Shown piece after piece: positions 1,835 through 29,084 of a DNA stretch of 38,829 nt. The translations under genes and the position numbers were made by a program. The notes beneath the pieces were generated by a model that ran no database searches, was not told where the DNA came from, and worked only from the letters and a program-made list of their open reading frames with translations. Origin of the DNA: Escherichia phage N7; sequence record MH717096.1; one strand, written 5' to 3'. The number at the start of each line of letters is the position of its first letter. Position 1 is the first letter of the stretch.

Positions 1835-3961
1835 ATGGCAGAGACATTAGAGAAAAAACATGAGCGGATCATGCTCAGGTTTGACCGCGCCTATTCTCCA
1901 CAGAAGGAAGTGCGCGAAAAGTGCATTGAAGCTACGAGGTTTGCTCGTGTCCCCGGAGGTCAATGGGAAGGAGCAACGGCGGCTGGAACTAAGCTTGATG
2001 AGCAGTTCGAGAAGTATCCTAAGTTTGAAATCAATAAGGTAGCAACTGAACTTAACCGCATCATTGCAGAATACCGCAATAACAGAATCACTGTTAAGTT
2101 TCGTCCTGGTGACAGAGAGGCAAGCGAAGAGTTAGCCAATAAATTAAATGGTCTGTTCCGTGCTGACTACGAAGAAACTGATGGCGGTGAGGCTTGCGAT
2201 AATGCATTTGACGACGCTGCTACTGGTGGTTTCGGTTGCTTCCGTTTGACGTCGATGCTGGTCAATGAATACGACCCCATGGACGATCGTCAGCGTATTG
2301 CTATTGAACCAATATACGACCCGTCGCGCTCTGTGTGGTTTGACCCTGACGCTAAGAAGTACGACAAATCTGACGCGTTGTGGGCGTTCTGCATGTATTC
2401 GTTGTCACCTGAAAAATATGAGGCTGAATACGGAAAGAAACCTCCTGCTTCTCTGGATGTAACGTCTATGACCAGTTGGGAATATGACTGGTTTGATGAA
2501 GATGTTATTTACATAGCGAAGTATTACGAAGTTCGTAAAGAGTCTGTTGACGTCATCAGTTATCGACATCCAATCACTGGAGAGATTGCAACATACGACA
2601 GTGATCAGGTTGAAGATATTGAAGATGAACTGGCAATAGCTGGATTTCATGAAGTGGCAAGGCGCTCAGTGAAGCGCCGTCGTGTGTATGTATCCGTAGT
2701 GGATGGTGATGGTTTCCTTGAGAAACCTCGACGTATTCCTGGTGAACATATCCCCCTCATCCCGGTTTATGGAAAACGCTGGTTCATTGATGACATTGAG
2801 CGTGTCGAAGGACATATTGCAAAAGCAATGGATCCACAGCGTTTGTATAACCTTCAGGTATCAATGCTGGCTGATACTGCAGCACAAGACCCCGGTCAGA
2901 TCCCTATAGTTGGCATGGAGCAAATTCGTGGACTTGAGAAGCACTGGGAGGCTCGCAACAAGAAACGACCAGCGTTCTTGCCGTTGCGCGAAGTGAGAGA
3001 TAAATCTGGCAACATCATCGCTGGAGCTACCCCGGCAGGATATACACAGCCCGCGATTATGAATCAGGCATTGGCTGCATTACTACAGCAAACCAGTGCT
3101 GATATTCAGGAGGTTACAGGCGGCAGTCAGGCCATGCAGCAGATGCCAAGTAATATTGCTCAGGAAACGGTTAACAACTTGATGAACAGAGCAGATATGG
3201 CTTCGTTTATCTATCTGGACAATATGGCGAAAAGTCTTAAACGCGCTGGTGAAGTATGGCTGTCAATGGCTCGTGAAGTGTACGGTTCAGAGCGTGAAGT
3301 GCGCATCGTTAACGAAGATGGAAGTGATGATATCGCTGTCCTGAGCGCACAGGTTGTTGACAGGCAAACAGGGGCTGTTGTTGCGTTAAATGACCTTTCT
3401 GTCGGTCGATACGATGTGACGGTTGATGTTGGACCAAGCTACACAGCACGACGTGATGCAACGGTTTCTGTACTGACAAATGTCCTTAGCTCTATGCTTC
3501 CAACAGACCCAATGCGTCCGGCAATTCAGGGTATTATTCTGGACAATATCGATGGCGAAGGCCTTGATGACTTCAAAGAGTACAACCGAAACCAACTGCT
3601 GATATCTGGCATTGCAAAACCACGCAATGAGAAAGAGCAGCAGATTGTTCAACAGGCGCAAATGGCAGCACAAAGCCAGCCAAATCCTGAAATGGTTCTC
3701 GCTCAGGCGCAAATGGTAGCAGCGCAGGCAGAAGCGCAAAAAGCAACTAACGAAACTGCTCAAACTCAAATCAAAGCATTTACTGCCCAGCAGGATGCGA
3801 TGGAGAGTCAGGCAAACACTGTCTATAAACTGGCTCAAGCCAGAAACATCGATGACAAAGCAGTGATGGAGGCAATACGCCTTCTGAAAGATGTCGCCGA
3901 GTCACAACAACAGCAATTCCAGTCACCACCACAGTCTCCGGCAGACTTAATGCCGAGTTAA
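1835..3961 (+). CDS. portal protein
   Basis: 708 aa from ATG 1835 just after terL stop; the ORF-track start at 1763 is an in-frame upstream extension overlapping terL; Q/A-rich C-terminal tail typical of P22-like portals. Confidence 0.85.
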   Translation: MAETLEKKHERIMLRFDRAYSPQKEVREKCIEATRFARVPGGQWEGATAAGTKLDEQFEKYPKFEINKVATELNRIIAEYRNNRITVKFRPGDREASEELANKLNGLFRADYEETDGGEACDNAFDDAATGGFGCFRLTSMLVNEYDPMDDRQRIAIEPIYDPSRSVWFDPDAKKYDKSDALWAFCMYSLSPEKYEAEYGKKPPASLDVTSMTSWEYDWFDEDVIYIAKYYEVRKESVDVISYRHPITGEIATYDSDQVEDIEDELAIAGFHEVARRSVKRRRVYVSVVDGDGFLEKPRRIPGEHIPLIPVYGKRWFIDDIERVEGHIAKAMDPQRLYNLQVSMLADTAAQDPGQIPIVGMEQIRGLEKHWEARNKKRPAFLPLREVRDKSGNIIAGATPAGYTQPAIMNQALAALLQQTSADIQEVTGGSQAMQQMPSNIAQETVNNLMNRADMASFIYLDNMAKSLKRAGEVWLSMAREVYGSEREVRIVNEDGSDDIAVLSAQVVDRQTGAVVALNDLSVGRYDVTVDVGPSYTARRDATVSVLTNVLSSMLPTDPMRPAIQGIILDNIDGEGLDDFKEYNRNQLLISGIAKPRNEKEQQIVQQAQMAAQSQPNPEMVLAQAQMVAAQAEAQKATNETAQTQIKAFTAQQDAMESQANTVYKLAQARNIDDKAVMEAIRLLKDVAESQQQQFQSPPQSPADLMPS

Positions 3962-20750: not shown

Positions 20751-20969
20751 TTTTTACCCGTCATGGAGTGCGGCTGTCAACGATCTGACGCGAACCATGA
20801 CGAACTGTGAATCTACGGAAGGCTTGATATTCAGGGGATTTTGCGGACTGGCACGGATGGTGGCGAACTGATAAATGGTGTCCCCTGCAGACATCTACTT
20901 GGCGCGGCAGGGGATTGATTGGAATGGTGTTTTTTAGATGTGAAAAATATTTTACCCGCTATTTTACCC
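20715..20969. other. candidate attP (arm-type 8-mer repeats flanking a tRNA-3'-end-like core)
   Basis: Five copies of TTTTACCC/GGGTAAAA at 20715, 20730, 20752, 20950, 20962 flank a 15-nt core at 20876-20890. Confidence 0.55.
20876..20890 (-). other. attP core candidate: minus strand reads CTGCAGGGGACACCA (tRNA acceptor 3' end + CCA)
   Basis: Plus strand TGGTGTCCCCTGCAG; its reverse complement matches my recollection of the 3' terminus of E. coli tRNA-Arg(CCU) argW; same orientation as int. Confidence 0.5.
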
Positions 20970-21164
20970 ATTGGCGCGGCTTAAGAGCTTATTTTTGAAT
21001 TCGCAATGGTCACGATATAACCATCTTGCTCGCCCGTGGATAACTTTGGCTTTTGGCAGGTCGCCGGACTTAATCCGGTCATAGATGAAGGTCTTACCGA
21101 AGCCAGTATCAGCCATGATGAATTTCAAATCAACCAGTGAATCAGGTTGTAGTTCGTGTTGCAT
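20964..21164 (-). CDS. xis: excisionase / AlpA-family HTH protein
   Basis: 66 aa; ...TFIYDRIKSGDLPKAKVIHGRARWLYRD fits the AlpA/Xis HTH pattern; upstream of int in the same orientation. Confidence 0.7.
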   Translation of the reverse strand: MQHELQPDSLVDLKFIMADTGFGKTFIYDRIKSGDLPKAKVIHGRARWLYRDHCEFKNKLLSRANG

Positions 21165-21208
21165 GAGTGCTATCTCCGAATAGGGAATCGAACCTGCAAA
21201 TCAGGCAA

Positions 21209-21231
21209 TAAAAAACCGCCATCAGGCGGCT
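21209..21231 (-). terminator. rho-independent terminator (minus strand)
   Basis: Minus strand GCCGCC-TGAT-GGCGG followed by TTTTTT; downstream of the small 55-aa ORF. Confidence 0.55.
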
Positions 21232-21389
21232 TGGTGTTCTTTCAGTTCTTCAATTCGAATATTGGTTACGTCTGCATGCGCTATCTGCGCCCATATCATC
21301 CAGTGGTTATAGCAGTCGTTGATGTCCTCTGCTTCGATAACCCTGTCGAATGGCTCTCCATTCCATTCACCTGTGACTCGGAAGTGCAT
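21222..21389 (-). CDS. hypothetical small protein (55 aa; not in ORF track)
   Basis: ATG at 21389 with SD GGAGATGA; translates MHFRVTGEWNGEPFDRVIEAEDINDCYNHWMIWAQIAHADVTNIRIEELKEHQAA; ends within the terminator. Confidence 0.35.
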   Translation of the reverse strand: MHFRVTGEWNGEPFDRVIEAEDINDCYNHWMIWAQIAHADVTNIRIEELKEHQAA

Positions 21390-21465
21390 TTATCATCTCC
21401 ATAAAACAAAACTCGCCGTAGCGAGTTCAGATAAAAGAAATCCCCGCGAGTGCGAGGATTGTTAT

Positions 21466-22191
21466 TCACCTTTGACGGCAAGTTGCAGGTTTGCCACGGT
21501 TAACCTCCTGCGGCGGTTCTGGTAGCGGCATCCAGTGGGTTACGTTGCTAATCAGTCCATATTCATTAGTTTGAGGATGGCCACCGCGATCGTCTCCGTA
21601 TTTAAAACTTTCCATAAAACCATAATGCTTACCCCCATTAACGCTCACAAAGCCGTAATAAGCTGGTATAACGCCGATCTCACACGTAATCAGCAAAGGA
21701 AAACCAGTTCTCCAATTTAGCTCGCCGATTACAGGCATTCGCTCACTACAGCTTATCCAACCATCCGGAGTTACCGGAGAGTTGCCGGGTTCTTTAATGT
21801 GCAAGCGAGGCTCACCATCTTTTGGCTCAGGCCACTGGCGCTCCATGTTGATCTTCAATTTATCTTCCATAGCAGCGGTAATTTCAGCATCGCTGATGCC
21901 AGCACGGCGCTGTGCATCCCACAACAGAAACTGCATATCAGCCCACTCGCTAAGATCGTCTGGTTCGGCTGCGGCTTCCAGTGCCTCTTTTGAGAGATGT
22001 TTCAGCGGACCAATGGGGCCAACGCAGCCAAATGTGGAGTCAGACCATTTGGCATGCTCGTGGCGAATCTGTTCGCGTTCCAGTGATGCCAGTGCAATTC
22101 GTGCCAGTTCCATTTGTTCGCCACGAGTAAGTCCGTTATCAAGCGGATTTTTAATGAATAATTTGATACGTTCTTTGGTTATAGCGCTCAT
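21466..22191 (-). CDS. hypothetical early protein with DUF551-like C-terminus
   Basis: ATG at 22191 (MSAITKER...) with SD GGAGAG; C-terminal HWMPLPEPP motif recalled as typical of DUF551 prophage proteins. Confidence 0.55.
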   Translation of the reverse strand: MSAITKERIKLFIKNPLDNGLTRGEQMELARIALASLEREQIRHEHAKWSDSTFGCVGPIGPLKHLSKEALEAAAEPDDLSEWADMQFLLWDAQRRAGISDAEITAAMEDKLKINMERQWPEPKDGEPRLHIKEPGNSPVTPDGWISCSERMPVIGELNWRTGFPLLITCEIGVIPAYYGFVSVNGGKHYGFMESFKYGDDRGGHPQTNEYGLISNVTHWMPLPEPPQEVNRGKPATCRQR

Positions 22192-22192
22192 A

Positions 22193-22636
22193 TCACTCTC
22201 CTTTGATGCGAATGCCAGTAGCGCGGATTGCATCGATGACTTCAGAAACTTTGTATGCCATTACCGTTTGGTAATCATCGTGAAAATCTGTTCGATGAAG
22301 CATGCTGCTACGTTCCGGGAGCAGTATTTCCCGCGCTTTCAGTTCTGCAATGCGCTTTTTTGCTGCTTCCAGTTCATCCAGTAATTCCAGCACGGTAGCT
22401 GGATTGGCTGCGGCGATGAATTCAGCATTGGCCTGCTGTTCCATTTGGAAATCTTCATCGAAACCGCTTTCAGGATGCGCTCCTTCAATTCTGCAAATGG
22501 GAAGATATCCAACAACGTCACGATGAATTAGCGCATCATCACAATCAAATCGGCTCTCTCCATATTCGAGCGACCACACACCACACGTTGCTTTCTCTGC
22601 CTTTTCACGCAGTGCCTGATAGTCAATCTTGCTCAC
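22193..22636 (-). CDS. hypothetical early protein (Ead/Ea22-like by recollection)
   Basis: 147 aa; N-terminal ...YQALREKAEKATCGVWSL...; tightly packed in the early-left operon. Confidence 0.5.
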   Translation of the reverse strand: MSKIDYQALREKAEKATCGVWSLEYGESRFDCDDALIHRDVVGYLPICRIEGAHPESGFDEDFQMEQQANAEFIAAANPATVLELLDELEAAKKRIAELKAREILLPERSSMLHRTDFHDDYQTVMAYKVSEVIDAIRATGIRIKGE

Positions 22637-23064
22637 TGGTTGCCTCCTTTGCGAAGCTGGGCAGCAAAGTCACGGATAGTGTCATCAAGTTCTGGGCACA
22701 ACAGATGGTCAGCAAACATCTCCACGCCCTGCGCCCGTACTTCATCCAGAAAAGCATCGGTGGCTGGGGTTTCAGTAACATCATCTTCCCATTCGCTAAA
22801 CTCCTCACGACAAAAGTCATTAAATTCCTTCTCAGATTGCTTAAGCGAGGTATTTTCAGCAGCCATCTTCGCGCATTTAGCCTCAAGGTTATCAATCGTG
22901 ATTCCAGCAGAACGACACTCCCGCAACGCCGTTTCTAGTTTTGATTCAAGTTCACCGAACTTACGGGCAAGATATTCAGCGTTTGTTTCGTTAACCTTTA
23001 AATCTCGTGGGATGCATTTACCTTTCAGAAATCCATCCATCTCAATTAGTGACATTTGTTTCAT
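22633..23064 (-). CDS. hypothetical early protein (143 aa)
   Basis: Acidic helical protein; start overlaps upstream stop. Confidence 0.5.
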
Positions 23065-23243
23065 TTCTTCCCACTCCGCAACATCGCATTCAGATATTTG
23101 TTGTCATTAACAGAACCGAAACTATTTCTCTTAAGCAATTCATCTCTCGATGGCATTGGCTTTACGCGTTGGCGAATAATCATTTCTGCCGGAAGAATGC
23201 CGGGATTGTATGCAAGTCCTCTCATGGTAAATTCCTCAGTCAT
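23061..23243 (-). CDS. hypothetical small protein (60 aa)
   Basis: ATG at 23243 ([15 protein letters not shown]...) overlaps the stop of the upstream gene; the ORF-track N-terminal extension is probably not translated. Confidence 0.4.
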
Positions 23244-23529
23244 TACTGATAGCGCCATAGCGTGAGCGGTAATTACGCAGGCGCGGGTCAATTTCAGGGA
23301 AGTGGGTATATGTGGCTTTGCGGAATGGTCGGATTGATGTCTGGTAAATTCGCTCGCGTTCTTCTTTCTCTGCAAGCCATATACAATGGCGAAATTCCTT
23401 TTCCTCTTTCGTTTCCTGCGGTAGCGACATTATCCGGTTGTAGTTTTTCCTGAATTTATCCAGCACCTCCGATACGGAATTGCCGGAACAGCGGCGCGCG
23501 TCATCCGCACCATACAGAGGCGCTGGCAT
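23236..23529 (-). CDS. hypothetical early protein (97 aa)
   Basis: Position and size resemble P22 abc2, but no sequence recollection supports homology. Confidence 0.5.
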
Positions 23530-23542
23530 GATTTTCTCCTGA

Positions 23543-24022
23543 TTAAATTGCGTGAATAGCGTGACGAGGGAAGGGGAGAGTTACTGGTTCCTCGTCTGGG
23601 TAGATAGGTTTGTTATGTTTGTGCCACTCGGCATGACATGACTTGCAGAGCCACATCACATCGGTTGGTTTGCTGTAGTCGCAGTGGTGCGCCTGTGGTT
23701 TACATTCTGATCCGCAGCACTCACATTGTGGTGGTCGGATTAGCTTACCGTCGCGCAAAAAATTACCCACGATGATGTGGGCTTTTCTTTTCCATGGGTT
23801 GCTCTGAATGAACCGCTTTTTGGCTGCGTTACACCGTTCTCTGCCGCGTTCCGATGATTGATATTCTCTCCTTGCTGATACTCGATGTGGCAATCCCGCG
23901 CGCTCTTTGTCGTATTCAGCCAGGCAAGCCCGGCAAGCGGCAGTTAATCCATCTCTGGATGCTCTTCTGATTTGAAAGTCCCTTTCTTCCTTCTGTTGAT
24001 GGCATCTTGAGCAGATTTTCAT
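23543..24022 (-). CDS. HNH nuclease-domain protein
   Basis: 159 aa; CxxC...CxxC plus HHCDYSKPTDVMWLCKSCHAEWH, an HNH-type pattern. Confidence 0.55.
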   Translation of the reverse strand: MKICSRCHQQKEERDFQIRRASRDGLTAACRACLAEYDKERAGLPHRVSARREYQSSERGRERCNAAKKRFIQSNPWKRKAHIIVGNFLRDGKLIRPPQCECCGSECKPQAHHCDYSKPTDVMWLCKSCHAEWHKHNKPIYPDEEPVTLPFPRHAIHAI

Positions 24023-24031
24023 ATTCAGCTC

Positions 24032-24505
24032 CTAGAACGGAATATCCGAATCGTCGAAGTTCATAGGTGGTTCGCTGTGATTTCCATGCTGCTGAGGTTG
24101 CTGTCTTTGTTGATGACCGTTATTTCGCTGAGGTGAAGACTGTTCATTGCCTCCTTGCTTGCCACCAAGCATTTGCATGGTTCCACCAACGCCCACGATG
24201 ACTTCGGTAGTGAACCGATCCTGTCCGCTTTGATCCTGCCACTTTCTTGTCCGCAATTTTCCTTCAAGATAAACCTCAGAGCCTTTTCGCAGATATTCGC
24301 TGGCAATTTCTGCCAGTTTTCCGCTCATTACCACGCGGTGCCACTCCGTCTGCTCCTTTTGCTCTCCAGTTTGCTTATCACGCCATTGTTCTGACGTAGC
24401 AACTGTAAGGTTTGCAAATGCCGTTCCTGATGGTGAATATCTGATTTCTGGATCATGTCCAAGGCGACCAATAATGATCACCTTATTTACGCCTCTGCTT
24501 GCCAT
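24032..24505 (-). CDS. ssb: single-stranded DNA-binding protein
   Basis: 157 aa; OB-fold N-terminus ([15 protein letters not shown]...), Q/G-rich linker, acidic tail [10 protein letters not shown]. Confidence 0.9.
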
Positions 24506-25213
24506 TTATGCCGCCTGTTTTAGTTCGTTAACTCTGATGTTCATTACCTGAACGCATTTAGCCTGCGCATCCTCATTGCCAGCCATTAATTGCCAGTCAT
24601 GCTGATAACGTTCGATGAGTTTTTTCTTGTCAGTTTCTGTCGACGCATAATCGCTGAAGTCTTTCAGGATTTGCTCGCAGTCAACCGATGGAGATTTCTG
24701 GTTGGTATTTTCTGGTGATGGTTTGTTATCTGATGCTGGGATTGCCCATCCCGGCAGCGATGGAGGGAGCCAGTAAAATCCTGTTCCATCCTTGAGTTTT
24801 GCCCTGTGCCACCCCTGCTTTTTATCGAGAGATGTTTGTGCGAAACCTTCCTCAAGGTTATACAGATACCGACCGATTCCCCACTGAACGGCAGCGCGCT
24901 TCATTGCACCGGAACGACCACCTTTGACGGCTTCTACCTGCGTGTTTTCAGCAGCATCCCATTTGGTTACCCATTCGGAATCAATCTTTATTGATATGCC
25001 GCATTCAACGCCGCCGTTGTTGGGAATATCGCGGTATTCATTGCGCCATCCTGCTTTGCCGCAAACATCGTCCAGGCGTTTCATGATTGCCCGGTTCGTG
25101 ACATAAGCCAGCACCATAGCCCACACTTTGCCATCGCGTGTTTTACCGCTTTGCTGTATTCGCCATTCGATATCTTCAGGGCTGAATGGCTCATCGAATT
25201 TATTCAAATCCAT
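24506..25213 (-). CDS. erf: single-strand annealing recombinase (Erf-like C-terminus, Rad52-like N-domain)
   Basis: C-terminal ...YASTETDKKKLIERYQHDWQLMAGNEDAQAKCVQVMNIRVNELKQAA matches recalled P22 Erf C-terminus; N-domain has KRAAVQWGIGRYLYNLE-type motif. Confidence 0.75.
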   Translation of the reverse strand: MDLNKFDEPFSPEDIEWRIQQSGKTRDGKVWAMVLAYVTNRAIMKRLDDVCGKAGWRNEYRDIPNNGGVECGISIKIDSEWVTKWDAAENTQVEAVKGGRSGAMKRAAVQWGIGRYLYNLEEGFAQTSLDKKQGWHRAKLKDGTGFYWLPPSLPGWAIPASDNKPSPENTNQKSPSVDCEQILKDFSDYASTETDKKKLIERYQHDWQLMAGNEDAQAKCVQVMNIRVNELKQAA

Positions 25214-25300
25214 AATTCACCTCAGAATGGACACGGCCCAAGGAAATAACGCTGATTTAATACTTCAGTCTTTGCCGCATTTAAAAATACGCGAACACCT

Positions 25301-25471
25301 TCACGATCTCCCTTCTGGCGATACATTAACGCCTGCTGCGTGTACATGCGTCTCTGTAACTTGCTCTCCTTCACTGTGGTTGCAAGTGACATGAATATCT
25401 CCTTCGTTACCGATTAATTCTTTCATCTGACGAATAAATTCTTCGTCTGACCAGTTATCTGTAAAACTCAT
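25301..25471 (-). CDS. hypothetical small protein (56 aa, kil/arf position)
   Basis: ATG at 25471 overlaps the stop of the upstream 50-aa gene (ATGA); an alternative overlapping ORF 25222-25392 with SD AAGGAGA also exists, so the real frame is uncertain. Confidence 0.3.
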   Translation of the reverse strand: MSFTDNWSDEEFIRQMKELIGNEGDIHVTCNHSEGEQVTETHVHAAGVNVSPEGRS

Positions 25472-25620
25472 TTCCTGCGATACCACGGAAGGTTGATAGC
25501 TGATTTCATCGCTTTATTTGCTTCAAGCCACATTTTGGAATCACCAATAAATCTGGCTATTACTGCTTTGTTTTGTGCTGCACGAAGCATCTGGTGATTG
25601 ATGGCTATTTCATTGCGCAT
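25468..25620 (-). CDS. hypothetical small protein (50 aa; not in ORF track)
   Basis: MRNEIAINHQMLRAAQNKAVIARFIGDSKMWLEANKAMKSAINLPWYRRK; overlaps the cIII 3' end. Confidence 0.3.
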   Translation of the reverse strand: MRNEIAINHQMLRAAQNKAVIARFIGDSKMWLEANKAMKSAINLPWYRRK

Positions 25621-25736
25621 AATAAGACCTCAACTCTTTTCCATCCGTCACGTAATTTACGGGTGATTCGTTCAAGTAAAGATTCATTTAGTTGGAAGGC
25701 ACCCATGCGAGCGCCTCCCGCGATTGCGTAAATCAT
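25605..25736 (-). CDS. cIII: CIII-like protein (43 aa; not in ORF track)
   Basis: MIYAIAGGARMGAFQLNESLLERITRKLRDGWKRVEVLLCAMK; ESLLERITRKLRDGWKR matches recalled lambda CIII core; SD AAGGAA. Confidence 0.6.
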   Translation of the reverse strand: MIYAIAGGARMGAFQLNESLLERITRKLRDGWKRVEVLLCAMK

Positions 25737-27342: not shown

Positions 27343-27543
27343 TCAGGCAGCCTTGTTGTTCTGTTTACCAAGTTCTCTGGCAATCATTGCCGTAGTTCGT
27401 ATTGCCCATTTATCGACATATTTCCCATCTTCCATTACAGGAAACATTTCTTCAGGCTTAACCATGCATTCCGATTGCAGCTTGCATCCATTGCATCGTT
27501 TGAATTGTCCACACCATTGATTTTTATCAATAGTCGTAGTCAT
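27343..27543 (-). CDS. ral: restriction alleviation protein Ral
   Basis: 66 aa MTTTIDKNQWCGQFKRCNGCKLQSECMVKPEE..., matching recalled lambda Ral. Confidence 0.7.
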   Translation of the reverse strand: MTTTIDKNQWCGQFKRCNGCKLQSECMVKPEEMFPVMEDGKYVDKWAIRTTAMIARELGKQNNKAA

Positions 27544-27813: not shown

Positions 27814-28119
27814 TCAATCGTAATAAGCTGGAATTGATTTTCCGCGTTGCTTCTGGCGACCAACACAAGTAACACCCATTTCACTGCGTGGCTTGCGGTA
27901 GTAAATACGGTTCTGTTTACGCTCGACTTCATCTGTCTTCTTGCAGCGAAGGCTTCCGAGTGATGCTGCTTTGTCTGCTCTGACGCAACCAGAGAGCTTT
28001 AGCGCAATTTTTCGCGCCAGTCGCTGTTCTTGCATTGCCTGTTCACGTTGAGCCTGTCTGCGTGCTCTGCGGCGATTTCTGGCGTTATCGTCAGCCAGAT
28101 ATGTAATGACTACTGTCAT
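27814..28119 (-). CDS. N: antitermination protein N (phage-21-like)
   Basis: Arginine-rich N-terminus NARNRRRARRQAQRE; C-terminal ...YYRKPRSEMGVTCVGRQKQRGKSIP resembles recalled N proteins; first gene after pL/nutL. Confidence 0.8.
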   Translation of the reverse strand: MTVVITYLADDNARNRRRARRQAQREQAMQEQRLARKIALKLSGCVRADKAASLGSLRCKKTDEVERKQNRIYYRKPRSEMGVTCVGRQKQRGKSIPAYYD

Positions 28120-28410: not shown

Positions 28411-28436
28411 AAAAAAAAGGGGCGAATGCCCCCTTA
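28411..28436 (-). terminator. rho-independent terminator downstream of repressor gene
   Basis: Minus-strand GC-rich hairpin (GGGGC-ATTC-GCCCC) followed by TTTTTTTT. Confidence 0.6.
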
Positions 28437-29084
28437 TGGAAGGTTTGCTAGTTTTGCATCGACAACTACGCCGATGATTTTGCAGTTTCCGTTGATCTCG
28501 ATCATCGGATATTGTGGGTTAAGTGGTTTTAGAAACTTCCTGCCTGCATCAATAACTAACTTCTTGAAAGTTGCCTCGTTTTCTCCTTCGAGCTTTGCAA
28601 CTACCAGTTTCCCGTTACGCGGCTCTACTTCAGGATCGACGAGTATTATCATTCCTTCAGGGATACTGAGACCGGCCGGAGCCGTCATTGAGTCTCCCTT
28701 CACGTCCAACCAAAACGAATCTTCTGAACAGTCTACGGTTGTATCGTACCAGTTATCTATTGCACGCTTATGATATGGTTCTACAGCTTCCATCCAGCAT
28801 CCTGCGCTCACCCAGCTAATCAGAGGGTATGACCCTCTTGGATCATGCCTACTGTGATAGGCAATGTTTGAAAGACTTTCCTCTCCTTTCATCAGATAGT
28901 CAGGGGAACACTTCAACGCATTAGCCAGGGCGAGAAGATTCTCTCCATTTGGCTCTGTCTCAGAGCGTTCCCACTGAGATATGGCAACATTAGACACGCC
29001 GACCATCTTTCCAAGTGCGGCCTGCCTGATCTTGAGTTCTTTTCTCCGAGCGCGAATGCGCTCTCCCATCAATTGAGTTTTCAT
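28434..29084 (-). CDS. c2: prophage repressor (P22 C2 / CI type)
   Basis: 216 aa; MKTQLMGERIRARRKELKIRQAALGKMVGVSNVAISQWERSETEPNGENL... closely matches recalled P22 C2; C-terminal LexA-like autocleavage domain. Confidence 0.9.
   Translation of the reverse strand: MKTQLMGERIRARRKELKIRQAALGKMVGVSNVAISQWERSETEPNGENLLALANALKCSPDYLMKGEESLSNIAYHSRHDPRGSYPLISWVSAGCWMEAVEPYHKRAIDNWYDTTVDCSEDSFWLDVKGDSMTAPAGLSIPEGMIILVDPEVEPRNGKLVVAKLEGENEATFKKLVIDAGRKFLKPLNPQYPMIEINGNCKIIGVVVDAKLANLP

Follow-up and report, generated by a model that had tools for sequence, protein, structure and literature searches.

Catalogued families account for the short genes of an early-left operon in Escherichia phage N7, including the overlapping pair g30/g29

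The closest described relatives of the locus treated here, the minus-strand block 21222-25736 of Escherichia phage N7 (MH717096.1), are Shigella phage Sf6 and phage IME10, which megablast aligned with 71-74% query coverage and 96-97% identity. The block lies in a stretch of 38,829 nt that was analysed as a whole and is called the window below. It contains a series of short, partly overlapping genes, among them cIII, kil and a pair that we call g30 and g29 after genes 30 and 29 of Sf6. Sf6 (NC_005344; genes 19-33; Casjens et al. 2004; 71% query coverage, 96.5% nucleotide identity) shares the order gp33-like gene, cIII, kil, gene 30, gene 29, gene 28 for the single-strand annealing protein (SSAP), ssb, HNH, abc2 and DUF2737 with the window, as well as the overlaps, that of genes 30 and 29 measuring 80 nt in Sf6. 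The window differs in carrying the HK022/H-19B allele of g29, whose product is 82% identical to Sf6 gp29, and the g30 tail therefore ends at 56 aa and not at 52 aa as in Sf6. In Sf6, a gene 24 that the window lacks separates abc2 from DUF2737, the ea-type genes towards the distal end are different, and gene 19 stands where the window has a 55-aa gene of PHROG 676.

The same operon logic and order are found in P22 (c3-kil-arf-erf-abc1-abc2-orf56), which has homologs of CIII, Abc2 and DUF2737 (orf56), a small acidic gene at the end of kil, and an SSAP C-terminal domain 66% identical to that of the window. The SSAP core, however, is of the Rad52 type in the window and ERF in P22. The Kil protein of P22 (62 aa) is unlike the lambda-type Kil of the window, as judged by reading the sequences and not by a formal comparison. 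Furthermore, Arf (47 aa) abuts erf in P22 and there is no g29, whereas in the window g30 is followed by g29. HK97 carries the same cassette after an identical Kil, and the first 43 residues of its gp42.1 are 97.7% identical to g30 of the window, but here g30 is fused in frame to the C-terminal 38 residues of g29 in a single open reading frame (ORF) of 83 aa. In lambda (cIII-kil-gam) the CIII core is identical, Kil is homologous, and the genes overlap out of frame by 32 nt (cIII/kil) and 46 nt (kil/gam); given the latter, a long out-of-frame overlap of g30 and g29 is not unusual. Lambda differs in having Gam, Bet and Exo instead of Abc2, a Rad52-type SSAP and SSB, in lacking g30 and g29, and in a CIII of 54 aa compared with 43 aa.

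By comparison with these systems, the block is very probably the early-left (PL) operon of an Sf6/P22-like lambdoid prophage, in which all short genes belong to catalogued families. The gene map comprises 13 genes on the minus strand, from cIII through the 55-aa gene, with a family match for each (Table 1). The early-left assignment follows from the surrounding genes (int, xis, N-like, ral, repressor and cro) together with a PL-like promoter match; the repressor gene, this promoter, the N-like gene and ral lie upstream of the operon, xis and int downstream. In agreement with the original prediction of a dense operon with stop/start overlaps, all junctions from cIII to the 241-aa gene are overlapping or at most 13 nt long, with ATGA at kil/g30 and DUF2737/143-aa, GTGA at 143-aa/147-aa, TAAATG at SSAP/ssb, and larger overlaps of 16 nt at cIII/kil and 92 nt at g30/g29. 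The ORFs of 43, 50 and 55 aa that it had put forward as genes are present on the minus strand. Mosaic recombination joints at 25622, 25471, 25221, ~21468 and ~21202 coincide with gene boundaries, as expected for functional modules.

A scan of the minus strand for terminator-like hairpins of at least 7 pairs found none within the cIII-to-241-aa block, and only weak 6-pair matches were observed there, at 25305-25290 and 23782-23765. The first of these, at the g30 stop, was considered as a terminator and rejected: it has 6 pairs (3 GC), lies inside a coding gene and has no T run in the Sf6 allele. Between 20500 and 29500 no RNA family was matched by Rfam at gathering thresholds. The tight packing and the lack of a strong hairpin suggest that the genes from cIII to the 241-aa gene may be made from a single antiterminated transcript, with translation of adjacent genes possibly coupled via the stop/start overlaps. 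The small products would then be CIII, Kil, a short acidic Arf-like peptide, a 56-aa helical-hairpin protein, a DUF2737 protein and a terminator-flanked 55-aa protein, with roles as suggested by their families.

Table 1. Coordinates of the operon features and of the genes around them, as positions in the window
Feature	Position	Strand	Evidence or remark
Integrase (int)	19557-20750		
TorI-type excisionase (xis)	20964-21164		
Intrinsic-terminator-like hairpin followed by a T run	21213-21232	-	Hairpin scan and sequence; stop codon of the 55-aa gene in the loop
55-aa protein, unknown function, last gene before xis	21222-21389	-	PHROG 676 5.4e-39, full length
Pair of terminator-like hairpins between the 241-aa and 55-aa genes (76-nt gap)	21460-21439, 21428-21409	-	Hairpin scan
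dATP/dGTP pyrophosphohydrolase + DUF551, 241 aa	21466-22191	-	PF04447 5.5e-42; PF04448 3e-12
Ead/Ea22-like protein, 147 aa, GTG start	22193-22636	-	PF13935 3.7e-22; PHROG 1667 residues 1-147; GGAGG upstream
143-aa protein, unknown function	22633-23064	-	PHROG 614; ATGA overlap with DUF2737
DUF2737 protein, 54 aa (P22 orf56 homolog)	23061-23225	-	PF10930 104 bits (cutoff 25)
abc2, anti-RecBCD protein, 97 aa	23236-23529	-	PF11043 2.7e-62, full length
HNH-type endonuclease, 159 aa (Sf6 gene 26)	23543-24022	-	PHROG 2340 3e-47; Sf6 annotation
ssb, 157 aa	24032-24505	-	PF00436 1e-38; TAAATG junction with SSAP stop
Rad52-type SSAP, 235 aa (Sf6 gene 28)	24506-25213	-	PF04098 5e-26
g29, 56 aa (Sf6 gene 29 / HK97 gp42 family; WP_000050554.1)	25222-25392	-	PHROG 1723 4.5e-34
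g30, 56 aa (Sf6 gene 30 / HK97 gp42.1 N-terminus)	25301-25471	-	PHROG 2123 4e-40
kil, 50 aa	25468-25620	-	PF06301 72.6 bits (cutoff 27.6); PHROG 2055 1.2e-35
cIII, 43 aa	25605-25736	-	PF02061 56 bits (cutoff 25.7), E 4e-15; PHROG 550 1.6e-20
ral	27343-27543		
N-like gene	27814-28119		
PL-like promoter match	28342-28314		
Repressor	28434-29084		
cro	29165-29350		

Codon-substitution analysis across related phages had been proposed by the original prediction for deciding which of the short frames are real, and it finds them coding in the claimed frames, with too few variants in cIII. For each of g29, the 55-aa gene and DUF2737, 80 IMG/VR loci were taken together with the named phages and genome contigs and reduced to unique haplotypes. 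Each distinct variant was then classed in all three frames, about 20% synonymous or third-position changes being expected by chance. In five of the six short genes, the synonymous or third-position excess was confined to the claimed frame. For kil, 16 synonymous and 8 nonsynonymous changes were counted (p=1e-6), for DUF2737 30 and 24 (p=5e-8), and for the 55-aa gene 18 and 19, with 21 of 37 variants at the third position (p=4e-5); the values for g29 and g30 are given below by region. The sixth gene, cIII, weighs against the reading: with 4 synonymous and 4 nonsynonymous changes, only 8 variants in all, the result is not significant. Because the variants are too few, the cIII call rests on the Pfam score and the match to the lambda core.

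These counts also bear on the possibility that the short frames stay open by chance in intergenic or overlapping DNA and have no product, which we regard as extremely improbable. Short ORFs are frequent by chance, and an NCBIfam scan of ten operon proteins gave no matches, none of the short frames having an NCBIfam model. Nevertheless, all of them have full-length Pfam or PHROG matches, the substitution excess is specific to the frame in five of the six (cIII being carried by its Pfam match), and mosaic recombination boundaries fall at their edges. In addition, g29 is kept to 41-50% identity in other genera and has 56 aa in most of the aligned relatives. The conservation data thus already contradict a chance origin.

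For the region 25222-25471, two overlapping frames had been described as competing. The overlap is real and out of frame: the g29 start lies 79 nt behind that of g30 and in the +1 frame relative to it, with 92 shared nt at 25301-25392. The competition is not borne out, as in all likelihood both frames are coding, each with its signature in a different part. In the g29 frame, 17 synonymous and 8 nonsynonymous changes were found within the overlap (p=3e-7) and 7 and 0 outside it (p=4e-5). In the g30 frame, the 75 nt that do not overlap contain 7 synonymous and 8 nonsynonymous changes, 10 of 15 variants being at the third position (p=0.007), while 2 synonymous and 23 nonsynonymous changes plus 3 stop-creating variants were observed inside the overlap. 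Hence, g30 looks like a real coding gene that is constrained in its 5' part only. We propose that g29 initiates from its own strong ribosome-binding site (AAGGAG 7 nt 5' of the ATG), whereas g30 would initiate by coupling to the kil stop, which its ATG overlaps as ATGA, and run over the g29 start to a stop that varies between phage types.

Several observations speak against g30 and raise the alternative that only g29 is a gene, the frame 25471-25301 being a non-functional ORF that stays open by chance. This is in effect the view of the Prokaryotic Genome Annotation Pipeline (PGAP), which in one 100%-identical locus examined calls g29 but not g30; likewise, most sampled annotation rows give a single hypothetical protein here, and some give two. 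Only a poor Shine-Dalgarno sequence, AGGA at a distance of 1 nt, precedes the g30 ATG. In line with the counts from the overlap, an ortholog retains no more than the first ~20 residues, and the tail across the 92 shared nucleotides drifts freely. The C-terminus depends on the allele (HAAGVNVSPEGRS in the window and HK022, HAESSLVSP in Sf6), with stops after 56, 52 or 53 aa.

We nevertheless consider this alternative unlikely, and the third-position bias of the 75 non-overlapping nucleotides is one argument against it. A diverged ortholog in Pseudocitrobacter, located before a 68%-identical g29, retains the first 20 residues (SxxDxWxDxxFIRxMKxLI) with 6 synonymous changes in 20 codons, and a 15-nt deletion in g30 of Klebsiella phage phiKp_30 is in frame. 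The start/stop overlap is maintained with three unrelated upstream genes, as ATGA, ATGA and GTGA, the last belonging to the Pseudocitrobacter ortholog and its different upstream gene. RecT-type modules of phages Louie, EC.P3 and SEN22 moreover contain a 35-aa gene whose product begins with the same N-terminal 16-20 residues, and the motif SDEEFI is common to g30 and P22 Arf. Finally, HK97 and a fused E. coli lineage can make the g29 C-terminus only from the g30 start. We therefore retain g30 as a probable gene beside g29.

These two fused types were compared with the separate alleles. In HK97, gp42.1 (83 aa; locus L083 1090-1341) and gp42 share a stop, the annotated gp42 being an internal start of gp42.1. 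Relative to the Sf6, HK022 and Klebsiella alleles, two single-base insertions in the HK97 record, CATGT(C)ACACGC(G)AG (+2 nt), join the first 43 codons of g30 to the last 38 of g29. In the E. coli lineage (L268 1501-1749), which was read on 24 contigs and listed in 36 index blocks, a one-base deletion (-1 nt) a few bases from the HK97 insertions creates an 82-aa ORF. The cIII-kil-ERF-abc2 module of this lineage is otherwise intact, as is the recombination module around the HK97 fusion.

Both junctions lie within CATGTACACGCAG, and many further 82-aa fusions with scattered junctions are found in databases, which would fit a programmed +1 (or -2) ribosomal frameshift joining g30 and g29 into an 82-aa protein. 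We judge this very improbable. The scattered-junction fusions mostly form clusters of one to four sequences and are probably indel errors or mutations. A +1 shift would be needed, as opposed to the -1 shift usual in phages, and reading the overlap revealed no slippery or stall motif. Besides having its own strong Shine-Dalgarno sequence and ATG, g29 exists without g30 in Salmonella, Kluyvera, Serratia and Yersinia loci. In an AlphaFold2 model of a natural 82-aa fusion (P0001), taken as a stand-in for the complex of g30 and g29, residues of the N-terminal part reached a predicted local distance difference test (pLDDT) score of 52-64, with no confident packing. Programmed frameshifting is unlikely in the unfused alleles because no slippery site is seen and the g30 stop is not fixed. 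As g30-type genes are also found without g29, each gene occurs without the other and the two are best described as separate modules.

The family of g30 was evaluated by comparison with P22 Arf, a recombination cofactor of Erf. The start of g30 overlaps the kil stop as that of arf does in P22, but g29 separates g30 from the SSAP gene. P22 Arf has FSDEEFI in its N-terminus, similar to WSDEEFI of g30, and BLASTP gives only the 7-residue SDEEFI match. The profile of the Arf family, PHROG 2445, matches g30 of the window with E 0.019, the Pseudocitrobacter ortholog with 8.4e-4 and the 35-aa protein of Louie with 0.062; that all three alignments cover profile positions 2-25 (22-24 residues) speaks for the likeness. 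The similarity is short and borderline, which counts against a firm assignment. We therefore call g30 Arf-like on sequence grounds, as a putative member of the Arf family. Section 12 of a published account (PMC12315714) gives the molecular roles of P22 Arf and Abc1 as unknown. In Pantoea (L262-L264) and Erwinia (L086 1055-1204), a 49-aa gene, MNAxAAV...DFDF[IFL]RALYEM..., shares 4 nt with the beginning of g29. Near its C-terminus, DFDFIRALYEM has a faint likeness to DEEFIRQMKEL of g30/Arf, but it matches neither PHROG 2123 nor PHROG 2445 and is regarded as a resemblance only.

The g29 protein is the better conserved partner. Its PHROG 1723 match is full length (residues 1-56 on profile positions 3-58 of 58), and its relatives, mostly of exactly 56 aa, occur in Salmonella, Enterobacter, Serratia, Pantoea, Erwinia, Kluyvera and Yersinia at 41-70% identity. 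In an alignment of 31 sequences, residues S10, A21, R25, E43, N46, Y49, F50, L51, G52, P55 and F56 are invariant, giving an invariant C-terminus of YFLGxxPF. AlphaFold2 predicts a helical hairpin with helices 7-27 and 30-51 at a pLDDT of 93. Two possible kinships were tested by hhalign and rejected: with Kil, which has a similar helix-GD-helix look (probability 2%), and with the C-terminal half of P22 Arf (0.1%). The cassette is widespread: whereas fragments of the query are found in 4027 of 5426 complete E. coli genomes, the 250-nt g30/g29 cassette was present at a coverage of at least 80% in 856 of them (~16%). Among the phages, HK022, Sf6 and mEp235 carry alleles identical or nearly identical to that of the window. 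A profile search of genome contigs with the g29 alignment yielded 8 loci, including the Pseudocitrobacter and Kluyvera orthologs. tblastn with the Pseudocitrobacter g29 gave no new phage relatives, and HK620 was absent among the matches listed.

The position of g29 is highly conserved. In the window the SSAP gene starts 8 nt past the g29 stop, and among the loci examined an ORF of at least 100 aa begins 2-10 nt past the stop in 99 of 102 g29 genes. The genes directly following encode 58 ERF (PF04404), 38 Rad52-type (PF04098) and 2 Sak4-type (AAA_24, PF13479) proteins and 1 HNH protein, whose gene is itself followed by an ERF-family recombinase gene; the remaining three have no ORF of at least 100 aa within reach or lie at a contig end. 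Where downstream genes are listed, ssb is found within the next two genes, and Serratia and Pantoea have the same arrangement.

This arrangement suggests, with moderate confidence, that g29 encodes an accessory factor of the phage recombination module. Three points weigh against giving it more: the argument is one of position; a Foldseek search of the g29 model against the PDB returned, with a best E of 1.1, only generic helical hairpins and designed minibinders; and the loci behind the neighbour counts were mostly picked by identity to the window protein and are not independent. Independent loci, those of Serratia, Pantoea, Erwinia, Pseudocitrobacter and Kluyvera, agree on the order of g29 and the annealing gene. 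We further offer, as a tentative and rather doubtful suggestion, that g29 is an uncharacterised accessory factor across enterobacterial lambdoid recombination modules, working with any annealing protein (ERF, Rad52-type or Sak4-type), possibly via their shared C-terminal domain of ~55 aa and with the Arf-like peptide as partner. Such a partnership would explain the fusion in two natural lineages. No published study of HK97 gp42/gp42.1 or Sf6 genes 29/30 was found in the literature searched. As g29 is widespread in E. coli and stands next to an annealing-protein gene in almost every locus examined, it is a cheap candidate for improving recombineering, and the lead to follow is that the 56-aa hairpin protein, perhaps with its Arf-like neighbour, serves the recombination module.

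The C-terminal ~55 residues of the SSAP are the part shared with P22 Erf (66% identity, E 2e-32), the cores being without similarity. The same domain ends three unrelated annealing cores, Rad52-type, ERF and Sak4/AAA_24, as seen at 24506-24745 in the window (C-terminal ~55-80 aa) and at L087 27254-27871, L003 199-804 and L086 1380-2243. The C-terminus of the Erwinia Sak4-type protein is 51% identical to that of an ERF-type protein (E 7e-16). From these sequences, the domain looks like a swappable partner-binding module.

At the promoter-proximal end of the operon, the original prediction had recognised a CIII-like 43-aa gene by a motif, and this is confirmed by the PF02061 match and by the core ESLLERITRKLRDGWKR, identical to that of lambda CIII in 17 of 17 residues. 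The gene has a ribosome site (AAGGA 8 nt 5' of the ATG) and is named CIII in the Sf6 record and by PGAP; its product is without the ~17 C-terminal residues of lambda CIII. Annotation feature notes give CIII as an FtsH inhibitor as a family role. We assign the product to the CIII family, from which FtsH inhibition and CII stabilisation are predicted; by analogy, CIII would inhibit FtsH and so favour lysogeny. RefSeq phage records mislabel CIII as 'CIII anti-termination'.

The genes in the kil/arf position had been left unassigned. The 50-aa gene directly after cIII is Kil itself: it matches PF06301, its product aligns with lambda Kil, and PGAP uses the same name. The protein is predicted from sequence to inhibit cell division, as Kil is described in PMC9836094, citing Haeusser 2014, as an inhibitor of FtsZ and cell division that blocks FtsZ ring assembly and leads to filamentation. 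With FtsH and FtsZ/cell division as the putative targets of CIII and Kil according to their family descriptions, the suggestion that small genes at this position are often host-directed would hold here. In Serratia (L259 ~2888-3004) and Yersinia (L265 ~992-1102), ORFs of 35-38 aa, e.g. MNKSFNTAQLAARAAIRLRSPALWAMAMVQLKQAWRSK, lie between cIII and the g29 homolog and are probably Kil-like. The stored gene calls of these contigs omit them; that of Serratia has an ATGA overlap at each end.

Two genes had been described as mis-started in the ORF track, with internal starts at 23243 and 22191. That both are mis-started is correct, and the second correction is supported: GGAG precedes the ATG at 22191 as a Shine-Dalgarno sequence, residue 1 of this version is where the PHROG profiles start, and homologs of the 241-aa protein behind other upstream genes have in-frame stops 1-4 codons 5' of the equivalent ATG. 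The first correction is not, as the DUF2737 gene starts at the ATG at 23225 by all sequence criteria applied. The Pfam DUF2737 and PHROG 1117 profiles begin at residue 7 of the 23243 version, i.e. the Met at 23225. This ATG is preceded by GAGGA 8 nt upstream, and P22 orf56 begins there (MRGLAY). The ATG at 23243 falls within the last codons of abc2, and DUF2737 loci behind other genes have in-frame stops, or no ATG, at the -18 position; a stop codon in the upstream extension was found in 13 of 80 DUF2737 loci, namely those preceded by a gene other than abc2.

At the distal end, the 55-aa protein is WP_000545722.1-like in RefSeq and is annotated by PGAP. Its gene occupies a mosaic module of its own of ~265 bp (21202-21468), with the recombination boundaries of related loci at the module edges and the upstream mosaic boundary at ~21436-21468. 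No promoter match was found within 21202-21468.

Regarding annotation, the short genes are not missed as had been claimed: Sf6 annotates cIII, kil, gene 30, gene 29 and DUF2737 at equivalent places (record of 2004), and the HK97 (2000) and P22 records contain equivalents of the short genes. On E. coli chromosomes, PGAP names CIII and Kil and calls g29, DUF2737 and the 55-aa gene as hypothetical or DUF proteins, whereas in many Sf6-allele genomes neither g29 nor g30 is called. The operon is thus already known and is a routine annotation case with nothing new in kind, and the understanding of how such operons work is unchanged. What was gained is a corrected DUF2737 start at 23225, a frame-by-frame answer on g30/g29, and support for g30 as a gene at its 5' end only. 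Six real genes of this lambdoid early-left operon are hidden when ORFs below 60 aa are cut off, and at least two genes receive a wrong start under first-start rules. RefSeq phage records (e.g. NC_005344 genes 29 and 30; NC_002167) label both small proteins 'recombinase', as do the PHROG 1723 and 2123 descriptions, a label for which we found no basis in the evidence.

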